The notes: generated by a model not told the origin, from the letters alone. A stretch of DNA of 64,000 bases from Candidatus Endomicrobium embiratermitis (GCA_009781315.1 WQYI01000002.1:61415-125414), one strand, 5' to 3'. Shown: positions 6,757 to 47,701, numbered from the stretch's first letter. Translations and numbers: made by a program.

Positions 6757-8082
6757 ATGAATTATTCGCCGGCAAAAACCTTAATATTGTTTTTTCTCGT
6801 TCTAATAACCGCGGGAACGGTATTATTGTTGTTGCCTGTTTCAAGAAATTCCGGATTTGATTGTTCAATTTTGACATGTTTTTTTACTTCCGTTTCGGCT
6901 GTAAGCGTAACAGGTCTTACGGTCGTTCCAACAGGTGAATATTTCTCATTTTTCGGTCAGACCGTAATATTGCTTTTGATACAGCTTGGCGGTTTGGGTT
7001 ATATGTTTGTTTCAACCGTCGTCACTTTGCTTATAGGCAAAATGGCTTTAAAAGACAGACGCATAATGAAGGAAATTTTCGATATTTCGTCTTTTAGCGA
7101 TTTAAAAAAGCTCCTTTATAAAGCCGTGTTTTTTGTTCTAGCTATAGAGTTTATCGGGGCAATTATTCTTACGGCGTTTTTTATGCGGCAATTCTCTTTT
7201 TTGAAATCGGTTTATCTCGGTATATTTCATTCGGTATCTGCTTTTTGCAATGCAGGTTTTAGTTTGTTTCCCGACAGTTTGATAAGTTACGCAGGCTCTC
7301 CGGTTTTGCTTTATACGATCATGTTTCTTATATTGCTTGGCGGTTTAGGGTTCTTTGTAATAGTGGATTTATACGATACATACAGATATAAGCGTTTGCA
7401 TTTGACAACAAATACCAAAGTTATTCTTTCGATTTCCGCCGCGATTATTATTTTCGGATTCGTATTTTTCTTTTTGTCGGAAAAGGTTTACGCTTTCGGG
7501 CTTCTGAAAAACGCAAGCGTTTTGGATGCCGTCAATAATTCTCTGTTTCAGTCGATAAGCGCGCGAACGGCGGGTTTTAATTCGGTTCCTGCCGAACATT
7601 TTAACCGTTTTACGAAAGTGATATTATCTTTTCTTATGTCTATCGGCGCAGCTCCCGGAAGCACCGCGGGCGGCCTTAAAATTACTACGCTTGCGCTTGT
7701 TTTTGTTTTTGTAAGAAGCTCGGTTAAATCAGAAGAAGATTATGTTCTTTTTAAAAAAAGAATTCCTTGGGATTTAATAAAAAAAGCGTTAACTATTTTT
7801 ATAATATATTTTACGGCAATGGCGGTTTTTTCGGCAATTCTTGTTATGTTTGAATCCTCCCAAGCTTCCGTTGATATGATTTTTGAAACCGTTTCGGCTT
7901 TCGGGACGGCAGGCTTAGACTCGGGCATTACGCCTCTATTGTCGGCCGGAGGAAAATTTATTGTCATAGCGTCTATGATAACGGGACGAATCGGAATTTT
8001 GACTATTCTAATTTTAATGGTAACTTCTACGGTAAAAAGAAAAAATATAAAGTACCCTGAAGCAAGAGTACTTGTAGGGTAG
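6757..8082 (+). CDS. TrkH/KtrB family potassium uptake protein
   Basis: 441-aa polytopic membrane protein; GLTxV/GYxFxS and SAxxTxG/GGLK selectivity-filter-like segments; adjacent to a TrkA-like gene. Confidence 0.8.
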   Translation: MNYSPAKTLILFFLVLITAGTVLLLLPVSRNSGFDCSILTCFFTSVSAVSVTGLTVVPTGEYFSFFGQTVILLLIQLGGLGYMFVSTVVTLLIGKMALKDRRIMKEIFDISSFSDLKKLLYKAVFFVLAIEFIGAIILTAFFMRQFSFLKSVYLGIFHSVSAFCNAGFSLFPDSLISYAGSPVLLYTIMFLILLGGLGFFVIVDLYDTYRYKRLHLTTNTKVILSISAAIIIFGFVFFFLSEKVYAFGLLKNASVLDAVNNSLFQSISARTAGFNSVPAEHFNRFTKVILSFLMSIGAAPGSTAGGLKITTLALVFVFVRSSVKSEEDYVLFKKRIPWDLIKKALTIFIIYFTAMAVFSAILVMFESSQASVDMIFETVSAFGTAGLDSGITPLLSAGGKFIVIASMITGRIGILTILILMVTSTVKRKNIKYPEARVLVG

Positions 8083-8089
8083 GTAAAGT

Positions 8090-8794
8090 ATGAAAAAGAG
8101 ACAATTTGGCGTTATAGGGCTTGGAACTTTCGGATTTAACGTCGCCGCAGAGCTTGCAAAAAAAGGCATGCAGGTTCTCGCCATAGACAATGATACGGAG
8201 ATAATCAACAGAATAAGCGAATCCGTCACTCAGGCTTTGGTCGTTGACGCGACGGACGAAAAAGCTATGTTTAACGCGGGGATTGCCGACTGCGACAGCG
8301 TGATTATTTCAATAGGCGAAAGCATAGAAACCAGCATACTTGCGACTTTAATCGTAAAAGAACTGGGCGTTAAAAACGTTATAGTAAAATGCGTAAGTTT
8401 GTGGCATTCCAAAGTCGCGGCGAAACTCGGCGCGGACACCGTGGTTTACCCTGAGTTTGAAATGGCAAAAAAACTTGTCGACAGCATAATTACTCCTAAT
8501 ATTTTAGAGCAGATAGAACTTTCAAAAGATTATAATCTTTTGGAGATAGTCGCTCCTAAAGAATTCTGGGGAAAAACAATTAAAACTTCCGGCATAAGAA
8601 ACAATTACGGCATAAACGTCATCGCGGTGAGAAAACAAATTCCCATTGTAGACGATAACGGGCATACCGACATAAAAGAAGAAATAAATATGGTTCCGGG
8701 AGCCGATGACGAAATAAACCAAAATGACGTGTTAGTAGTGGTAGGTTCTCATAGTTCTCTCGAAAAAATTAAAAAAATAAAGGATATTAAATGA
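8090..8794 (+). CDS. TrkA/KtrA NAD-binding regulatory subunit
   Basis: 234 aa; Rossmann GxGxxG (GLGTFG) plus TrkA-C domain. Confidence 0.8.
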   Translation: MKKRQFGVIGLGTFGFNVAAELAKKGMQVLAIDNDTEIINRISESVTQALVVDATDEKAMFNAGIADCDSVIISIGESIETSILATLIVKELGVKNVIVKCVSLWHSKVAAKLGADTVVYPEFEMAKKLVDSIITPNILEQIELSKDYNLLEIVAPKEFWGKTIKTSGIRNNYGINVIAVRKQIPIVDDNGHTDIKEEINMVPGADDEINQNDVLVVVGSHSSLEKIKKIKDIK

Positions 8795-47360: not shown

Positions 47361-47488
47361 TTTTTAACTTCGTCTTTTAAGCTTATACAGCGTCAGAGGT
47401 TCGCTCATTTACCGTTTGCTTTCGTAAACTTCGCCAGCCTCTTCCTTGTCTAAACTTAAAATACTTCGTTAAATTTATGGTAACCATA

Positions 47489-47590
47489 TTGATTTGCTGT
47501 CGCAAGCGTCAGTCGCCGTGCGACGAATAAGGAGCACAAGTTTGGCGACGGGTGCAAGATGGTGAGCACCCAATCCTTTAAGAGAATCCT
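47489..47590 (+). ncRNA. Candidate structured RNA element, copy B (two hairpins; conserved loop CGACGAAUAAGGAGC)
   Basis: Aligns with the reverse complement of 1814-1915; the stems differ by compensatory substitutions. Confidence 0.45.
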
Positions 47591-47701
47591 TGTAAAAATT
47601 AATATATAAATAAAATATTTCGCTAAAAGATATTATTTCAAATACAACCGTTTAGACTTTAGAGCAACAGTTTAAACGGTTATTTTATGGAAGGTGGAAA
47701 A

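Follow-up and report, generated by a model that had tools for sequence, protein, structure and literature searches.

REPs are short, non-coding repeats, each a single hairpin of 20–40 nt that ends on one side in an unpaired tag, GTAG or CGTC (PMC3733652). They are also found inside genes and are thought to be recognized as single-stranded DNA by a Y1/HUH enzyme, and they may act as RNA hairpins as well (PMC3733652, PMC8266576). [quoted passage not shown]

In this study, we analysed a stretch of 64,000 nt from Candidatus Endomicrobium embiratermitis (the window), in which a structured RNA with two hairpins had been predicted in two copies. The element is previously undescribed, measures about 60–75 nt in its folded form, is dispersed in genomes of Endomicrobia from termite guts and of a few further uncultured bacteria, and is best filed under small structured dispersed repeats. 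It resembles REPs and REPINs in being short, non-coding, multi-copy, mostly intergenic and occasionally inside genes, and in keeping its hairpin by compensatory change. However, REPs reach high copy number and are mobilized by RAYT (TnpA-REP), whose gene often has the repeats on its flanks, whereas few copies of the element are seen per genome fragment, and the element has two or three helices, a length of at least 60 nt, a 12-nt invariant loop, tandem G·A pairs and a conserved bulge. A REP/REPIN architecture was rejected: the complement of CGTC, GACG, is located within the loop and not at the end, and there is no single palindrome of 20–40 nt. Like the ends of IS200/IS605 and their gene-less derivatives, the element has a pair of similarly built subterminal hairpins and lacks terminal inverted repeats; strand specificity, insertion beside a short specific sequence and the lack of an evident target duplication may also be common to both (PMC3201880, PMC6006769). 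Unlike in IS200/IS605, neither TnpA nor TnpB is encoded between the hairpins or close to them, and the left hairpin lies at the junction itself instead of about 19 nt inside.

RPEs and intragenic MITEs are likewise small structured repeats found in frame in protein genes, where the reading frame survives, and in RNA genes (PMC10969869); RPEs are 100–150 bp long, are similar in sequence throughout the family and encode a conserved peptide, whereas the element presents one intragenic case. A classical MITE was rejected, as no terminal inverted repeats are common to the copies and the flanking inverted repeats differ completely. Integron attC sites, with R''/R' boxes RYYYAAC/GTTRRRY, were also rejected: the outer helix of the element varies freely (GUCGCC, GACGCC, GCCGCA, GUGAGU and others). 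The copies are not arrayed one per cassette. A compact covarying fold, invariant nucleotides and a dispersed distribution not tied to one gene family recall small multi-copy RNAs and ribozymes with an unknown or selfish role, such as HEARO, twister, hatchet and HDV-like RNAs, from which the element differs in having no associated ORF and no sequence or structure match in Rfam 15.

The two copies in the window

The two look-alike stretches of the original prediction are real, as judged from the sequence, their alignment and a shared 16-mer, with some corrections to their anatomy. Copy B (47489–47590, + strand) and copy A (1915–1814, − strand) are 70% identical in a global alignment (76 of 109 columns), within the range of two-thirds to three-quarters estimated by eye, and the 60-nt folded cores are 80% identical (48/60). 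The exact 16-mer common to both, GCGACGAATAAGGAGC (47520–47535, +; 1880–1865, −), forms the sole exact pair within the 64-kb window.

The core of copy B occupies 47512–47571 (+; covariance-model score 82.1 bits, E = 8e-16). The outer helix P1 (47512–47517 with 47544–47549, GUCGCC/GGCGAC) encloses P2 (47518–47521 with 47534–47537, GUGC/GCAC), which carries the 12-nt invariant loop GACGAAUAAGGA (47522–47533); a 3′ bulge, AAGUUU, lies at 47538–47543, and P3 (47550–47555 with 47566–47571, GGGUGC/GCACCC) has the loop AAGAUGGUGA (47556–47565). The 3′ tail AAUCCUUU (47572–47579, +) belongs to the 'AUCC' subfamily according to a flank table of the 32 copies described below and a subfamily alignment. 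Copy A has its core at 1888–1830 (−; 83.0 bits, E = 5e-16), with P1 at 1888–1883 and 1856–1851 (GUUGCC/GGCAAC), P2 at 1882–1879 and 1866–1863 (ACGC/GCGU), the invariant loop at 1878–1867, the bulge AAGUCU at 1862–1857, P3 at 1850–1845 and 1835–1830 (GGACGC/GCGCCC, one A·C mismatch) and the P3 loop GAGAUGUGA at 1844–1836. Its 3′ tail, UAUCCUUAGACUAA (1829–1816, −), marks the approximate right end of the inserted segment, as placed by the flank table and by comparison of filled and empty sites.

The loop of the first hairpin, given originally as 15 nt, has 12 unpaired nucleotides closed by a 4-bp stem. The inner and outer stems proposed for copy B stand as they were; in copy A the inner stem CGC/GCG has to be corrected to ACGC/GCGU and the outer stem UUGCCA/UGGCAA to GUUGCC/GGCAAC. 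The second hairpin holds in both copies, with the A·C mismatch of copy A as the only amendment. Eight of the 12 core differences between the copies combine into four compensatory pairs, two of them in the inner stem and one each in the outer stem and hairpin 2; three are unpaired, and one, the A·C mismatch in hairpin 2 of copy A, breaks a pair. With RNAfold, the minimum-free-energy fold of copy B gives all three helices (z = −2.0); the minimum-free-energy structure of copy A differs, and the same three helices can form.

Homologues, common fold and subfamilies

The 21-mer CGACGAATAAGGAGCNNAAGT was scanned against a collection of species-representative genomes and then against metagenomes; retrieved loci are labelled L### (e.g. 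L004, L032, L057). The genome scan gave 13 loci: four copies in Ca. Endomicrobium neocapritermitis, two in Ca. E. labiotermitis, two in an unclassified MAG, and others in further Elusimicrobiota/Endomicrobia MAGs, one Omnitrophota MAG and one Nitrospiraceae MAG. The metagenomes added 21 loci, most of them from termite-gut samples; seven of the 21 duplicated genome-scan or viral loci. A covariance model built from 15 cores and run over the retrieved DNA found 32 distinct full-length copies (54–85 bits) on contigs of Elusimicrobiota (mostly Endomicrobium), Omnitrophota and Nitrospiraceae, at least three phyla, with up to three copies within 14 kb. Loci were sampled by an exact match to the 21-mer, so that the invariance of the loop is partly a matter of ascertainment; five of the 32 copies lack the search pattern, were found by the covariance model alone and keep the loop in every case. 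The stems are absent, with scores of 25 bits or less, from three kinds of word match: the one viral contig with the 21-mer, one match in coding DNA and all 13 viral matches to the 16-mer; these stemless matches provide a chance control for the fold of the 32 copies. A phage origin was rejected, all viral matches to either word being without the fold.

At the gathering threshold, Rfam 15 returned only three tRNAs from the whole window; the region of copy B gave noise of 12–17 bits at E ≤ 10, and nothing overlapped the element at 12 + 9 other loci. At gathering and permissive thresholds alike, this bears out the original view that the element is unlike tmRNA, SRP RNA, 6S RNA, RNase P RNA and the known riboswitches. 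Full-text literature searches gave no match to the loop sequence and nothing relevant on structured RNAs of Elusimicrobia.

All 32 copies have one fold, in which P1 encloses P2, P2 bears the invariant loop and P3 follows directly after P1. P1 (5–6 bp) is free in sequence, with tandem G·A in one subtype; P2 is NNGC/GCNN in all copies; the 3′ bulge is AAGUNN, rarely GAGU or AGGU; and P3 has 6 bp and a loop GAG-N2–5-GUGA. In the 32-sequence alignment 93.5% of cells are paired, compared with 76.6% in shuffles, and double changes occur in 14 of the 16 pairs; none of 500 shuffles reached any observed measure, and shifting the 3′ partners into slid registers left 22–50% paired. RNAalifold independently recovered P2, the inner C–G pair and P3 from an unfitted MAFFT alignment. 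Chance is excluded by the retention of the fold in 32 homologues together with the shuffle and slid-register controls. The covariance model and homologue search proposed with the original prediction have thus yielded 32 homologues with the stems maintained in all, and the covariation that it took as a sign of selection on single-strand structure is strong over this larger set. On the alignment, the fold is kept by compensatory change and the loops are invariant.

The variant at L035:8471 has a continuous Watson–Crick stem, GUCUGAC-GAAUAA-GUCAGAC, in place of GC-GA-C..G-GA-GC. This substitution of the G·A pairs points to a GAAUAA hexaloop, set on a C–G pair and two predicted sheared G·A pairs, as the true tip of P2. 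The tip of P3 repeats the design of a GC clamp with tandem G·A/A·G and tolerates inserted helices in L005 and L032:5102. Ten G·U cells stand against three A·C cells, in addition to 20 G·A cells, and the excess of G·U over A·C indicates that the strand chosen in the original prediction is the folded one. The unit, of about 60–110 nt, is predicted to work as a single strand, on that strand.

The left flank ends in GG in 18 of the 32 copies, often as GCGG, and 12 of those 18 have the tail CGGA or CGGG; in the CGGAA copies the tail begins a further hairpin. A left flank ending in CA is found in nine copies, eight of which have the tail (A/U)AUCC. Both window copies have the AUCC tail, with ..CA to the left of copy B and ..GG to the left of copy A. 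No guide pairing with the target was identified across these GG (18/32) and CA (9/32) flanks. In one subfamily, GCAAGUC..GAACGG with GGGUGAGU is a combination that we take to be common to 16S rRNA; it was dropped as subfamily-specific.

The downstream AUCCUU, proposed originally to pair with the loop, is indeed part of the element and complementary to the loop, as a property restricted to the Endomicrobium 'AUCC' subfamily (11/32 copies), other subfamilies having CGGAA.. or other tails. The tail UCCUUA is complementary to UAAGGA of the loop over 6 bp in copy A, L024:687 and L032:12209; the match covers 5 bp in copy B (UCCUU/AAGGA) and L017, and 3 + 3 bp with a 2-nt bulge in L002, L007 and L013. 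A loop–tail pseudoknot is plausible in this subfamily from complementarity, a pairing that covariation is unable to probe because the loop is invariant.

Genomic contexts of the copies

Copy B lies 129 nt from tRNA-Glu and about 100–110 nt from purA, which is on the same strand, much as originally described (about 130 and 100 nt). The further hairpin noted 3′ of it (AACCGTTTA..TAAACGGTT) is present at 47646–47681 (+), where AACCGUUUA..UAAACGGUU is followed by UUAUUUUAU and the purA Shine–Dalgarno sequence. The purA gene of the window is 82% identical to that of E. proavitum and 83–89% identical to those of many Endomicrobium MAGs, and the order tRNA-Lys/tRNA-Glu/purA was compared in eight loci (E. 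proavitum, Endomicrobiellum agilis, E. devescovinae and five metagenomic relatives), whose tRNA-Glu-to-purA spacers measure 70 to 513 nt. A covariance scan with filters off found the element in none of the eight, and the purA-proximal hairpin is kept in all eight regardless of spacer length, with compensatory changes (AACCG/CGGUU, AACCC/GGGUU, UCAUU/AAAUG). Since it is kept in loci without the element, this hairpin belongs to the tRNA-operon/purA junction and not to the element; it is likely to be a terminator of the tRNA operon or an attenuator of purA. The link of the element to tRNA-Glu or purA that its position had suggested falls with these eight loci.

A cis-regulatory leader of purA or of the tRNA operon, masking or mimicking a Shine–Dalgarno sequence, would agree with the place of copy B some 110 nt upstream of purA on the same strand and with AAGGAG in the loop and complementary UCCUU downstream, but the orthologous purA loci do without the element while keeping the hairpin, copy A faces an antisense tRNA, the genes downstream of other copies are unrelated (exbB, glnA, dsbA, thiC, tRNAs) and the orientation relative to neighbouring genes is mixed. 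We therefore give such a leader hardly any credence, and as a reading of purA control it is, on these comparisons, essentially excluded. The position of copy B between tRNA-Glu and the conserved pre-purA hairpin makes it probable that the copy is transcribed as a trailer of the tRNA operon, without regulating purA. Directly after tRNA-Glu, at 47363–47473 (+), lies a separate 110-nt palindromic insert with 27-nt imperfect inverted arms around a hairpin (GCGUCAGAGGUUCGCUCAUUUACC..); a hairpin related to it abuts the divergent element copy in L035 (about 8400–8470).

The genes nearest to the copies are exbB and those for a TonB-dependent receptor, flavodoxin, glnA, dsbA, hemerythrin, thiC, hisD and a decarboxylase. 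Between co-directional genes, ten copies are in sense and five in antisense, and orientation with respect to the flanking genes is not strongly biased. A 5′-UTR element was rejected, as these orientation statistics give no support to it, and so was a cis-regulatory leader or riboswitch class in general, no position upstream of one gene family being conserved in sense. One unclassified MAG carries copies at L011 3555–3618 and 5760–5823 (−) and L009 6722–6785 (+), all three in sense in short gaps just upstream of genes (exbB, glnA and a small ORF); two of them have a common 3′ extension, GACGACU..UAGCGUAAGCGAAAGGAGGAG, that supplies a Shine–Dalgarno sequence. In L025 the element lies in frame inside an ORF of 2466 amino acids and is translated as ..GVGCATNKEHKFSQAAETVRRPG..; the insertion point is a variable linker, about ten amino acids shorter in five of six aligned homologues. 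Most copies contain stop codons, and this is the one intragenic case.

Copy A is inserted in a host repeat, H (UUUUUGCGACGCUU..element..AAAUGAGCCGGAGUAUAAGGAGGCAAAAAUUCAAAAGC; 1764–1935, −), which abuts the 3′ end of tRNA-Leu in antisense and of which element-free copies are found in L057, L036 and L042. H has the consensus UUUUUGCGACGCYUGCGACGG ... GAGCCGGAGYRUAAGGARGCAAAAAYUUCAAA and is present at L036 2175–2260, L042 990–1215, L057 1880–1960 and L032 12150–12300 in addition to the window; it stands in antisense against the 3′ ends of tRNA-Leu (window, L057) or tRNA-Glu (L036, L042). It occurs with or without the element and bears a second, element-like loop, GGAGUAUAAGGA, identified by motif search in the related hairpin GCC-GGAGUAUAAGGA-GGC (1805–1788, −). 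The closest relative, L057, has the same PFOR/tRNA-Leu(UAA)/DUF4032 order and a DUF4032 protein 87% identical to that of the window; its 121-nt spacer lacks the element and contains H intact. With junctions marked by a slash, the empty site in L057 reads ..GCGTTTAGGCGG/GAACTTAATGAGCC.. and the filled site of copy A reads ..CGCTTAAGACGG/GTTGCC...GCGCCCTATCCTTAGACTA/AAACTAAATGAGCC.. The right boundary of copy A is ambiguous by a few bases, and CTTAAGAC and CTTAGAC flank its junction, which leaves the junction ambiguous and a duplication possible; this filled/empty comparison establishes neither a target-site duplication nor a defined right end. On its + strand H has a promoter-like TTGGCT-18-TATACT (1771–1800). 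The strand of copy A is opposite to the GC-skew expectation under a lagging-template model, which is uninformative with two copies only.

Copies in several independent contexts have a sharp left boundary, set at the first base of P1, and the core has no terminal inverted repeats of its own. Copies are found at the apex of unrelated long palindromes, and many are enclosed by a long flank–flank helix of unrelated sequence (perfect over 20 bp in L007, 30 bp in L010, with a tRNA-derived 5′ strand in L015). These flanking inverted repeats are wholly different between copies, e.g. GTCATTGCGG.., GGCAATTACGAAT.. and CCCTCGCCCC.., and are part of host palindromes, which are found without the element as well. 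A unit of 150–175 nt with near-identical flanks (CCCTCGCCCCTTGCGGG...AGGGTGAGGGG) bears different P1 types, and the P1 type GUGAGU/ACGAAC is found in four flank contexts.

A tRNA gene or tRNA fragment is found no more than 300 nt from nine of the 32 copies, eight of which are in sense, and one copy lies 70 nt after a 5S rRNA. One copy in L032 comes exactly after the D-loop GG of a tRNA-Ser-like sequence (GGAGAGGUGUCCGAGUGG-element-UGAAGGAGCUAGUCUCGAAAACU), with no duplication seen at the junction; about 500 nt away a second lies inside a tRNA-Ser-like T-loop (ACGGGAAACCGUAUCGCGGG-element-AAAUCCCGCCCUCUCCGCC), and an intact tRNA-Ser(CGA) with a flanking 25–33-nt inverted repeat stands between the two. 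A duplicated tRNA 5′ part ending at the same D-loop GG directly precedes the element in L005 (from the adjacent tRNA-Ser(UGA)), L004 (from the adjacent tRNA-Asn) and L015 (a tRNA-Ser-like 5′ part in tandem units of 118 nt). The tRNA pieces flanking the element are partial copies of neighbouring genes. A tRNA or tRNA-like gene was rejected, since neither ARAGORN nor RF00005 calls the element or its fusions with tRNA fragments.

Several of these neighbourhoods have been rearranged in other ways. At L032 4570–5200 (−), the dead halves of a tRNA-Ser (acceptor GGAGAGG/CCUCUCC) lie about 490 bp apart, separated by a segment that is bounded by the 25–33-nt inverted repeats and carries the intact tRNA-Ser(CGA); from the sequence, this looks like a tRNA gene replaced by an inserted cassette. 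At L004 7258–7910 the anticodon loop of a tRNA-Asn(GUU), a gene missed by ARAGORN, is interrupted by an intron of about 600 nt, which Rfam identifies as a group I intron (70 bits, 7596–7864) and which contains an HNH-like ORF. Other MITE-like palindromes lie in L040 between tRNA-Lys and tRNA-Glu (1915–2136) and after tRNA-Glu (2213–2370), with terminal inverted repeats of about 45 bp, GTCATTCCCG..CGGGAATGAC modules and outer ends TGGGTCTCTCTAAAAATCC, which also enclose the copies of the element in L007 and L002. At L020 1205–1480, a segment of about 66 nt, made up of tRNA-Lys from the T-loop to the 3′ end and a further 46 nt, recurs as a duplicate about 210 nt downstream; a degenerate element-like sequence (GACGAATAGGAGG..) comes after the first repeat and a canonical copy after the second. 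The flanks of tRNA genes appear to be insertion hot spots in these genomes, to judge from their sequences.

In the tRNA contexts the junctions are placed in the D- and T-loops, which meet at the elbow, and always in tRNA sense. Together with the sharp left boundary at the first nucleotide of P1 and the head-to-tail units in L015, they could suit a new small self-cleaving ribozyme or RNA-level mobile element, one that would self-process at the 5′ boundary, in the manner of HDV-like or hatchet ribozymes, and be joined as RNA into cleaved tRNA loops or other transcripts before returning to DNA by reverse transcription. The size, multi-helix core, possible pseudoknot and dispersed copies also resemble the small ribozyme classes. 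However, the conserved nucleotides are mainly in the terminal loops and not at a junction, no Rfam ribozyme family matches even at E ≤ 5–10, and a reverse transcriptase was not seen nearby; catalysis is hypothetical, and we judge this reading very improbable.

A somewhat better prospect, which we still hold to be unlikely, is that the copies are paralogous trans-acting small RNAs whose invariant tips bind a conserved partner in the cell, which would be a protein or, by way of UAAGGAG, the 3′ end of 16S rRNA, and whose stems, borrowed from tRNA fragments and palindromes, would give stability, promoters and processing sites. The complex fold with invariant loops and covarying stems, the closure of many copies by flank–flank helices and the proximity in sense to tRNA genes and once to 5S rRNA all fit such a family, as do the unit in L005, which brings a promoter-like TATAAT of its own and, beyond the closing stem, a U-run, the tandem units in L015 with their resemblance to tRNA arrays, and the recurrence of the related hairpin GGAGUAUAAGGA beside tRNAs. 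Yet the element is absent at all nine orthologous sites examined and lies once in frame inside a giant ORF, scans for sigma-70 promoters and terminators gave no consistent signals, and the GGA of the Shine–Dalgarno-like motif is engaged in G·A pairs and replaced in L035:8471. The discrete small-RNA gene of the original prediction is not the best fit; the distribution is like that of an inserted dispersed repeat.

The dispersed-repeat interpretation

A non-autonomous dispersed repeat is favoured over a small-RNA gene or a cis-regulator because selection on a one-strand fold is combined with insertion in many unrelated places. By sequence comparison, copies are present or absent at orthologous sites and stand in unrelated contexts; absence at orthologous sites could also be explained by loss. 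We tentatively regard both stretches of the window as the folded core of a non-coding, insertion-type dispersed repeat family of Endomicrobia and a few uncultured phyla, a proposal whose chances we put slightly short of even.

In such a repeat, the two similar hairpin tips would be the binding sites of one trans-acting, probably dimeric protein, which would copy or move the element, and insertion would take place beside short G-rich targets (..GCGG/..GG) that hairpin loops, for instance the D- and T-loops of tRNAs, leave exposed. The nearest mechanistic analogy would be the single-strand recognition of subterminal hairpins by HUH/Y1 enzymes, as at IS200/IS605 ends and in REP–RAYT systems; the likeness is drawn from the similar hairpin tips, the lack of terminal inverted repeats, a left flank rich in G and a left boundary that is sharp. 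No copy was found to have a transposase, recombinase or reverse transcriptase beside it (the ten nearest genes are unrelated housekeeping genes), and tblastn searches of 443 kb with IS200 TnpA and RAYT queries gave only noise (dnaA, rplT, trkH). To our knowledge, no transposon end or REP has so elaborate a fold. Its three to four helices, non-canonical pairs, conserved bulge and possible pseudoknot give it the likeness of a functional RNA, which speaks against the repeat reading.

A larger though unlikely claim is that of a new RNA class. Its members would be either self-processing, RNA-level mobile modules joined into tRNA elbow loops (the D-loop after G19, the T-loop) and other transcripts, or a protein-binding small-RNA family scaffolded by tRNA-derived and palindromic stems; in either form the invariant GACGAAUAAGGA, AAGU and GAG..GUGA would make up a functional tertiary core.

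With 32 copies in at least three phyla, near-complete covariation and no database match, the element is among the better-supported undescribed structured nucleic-acid motifs found from sequence alone. In annotation practice, it should not be labelled a purA leader. If it is a cellular or catalytic RNA, it would represent a new RNA class in almost entirely uncultured lineages. If it is a mobile repeat, it would be a new type of small selfish element that is recognized through an unusually elaborate fold and prefers hairpin loops, those of the D- and T-loops in tRNA genes among them, and this reading would bear on the decay and replacement of tRNA genes in reduced symbiont genomes.
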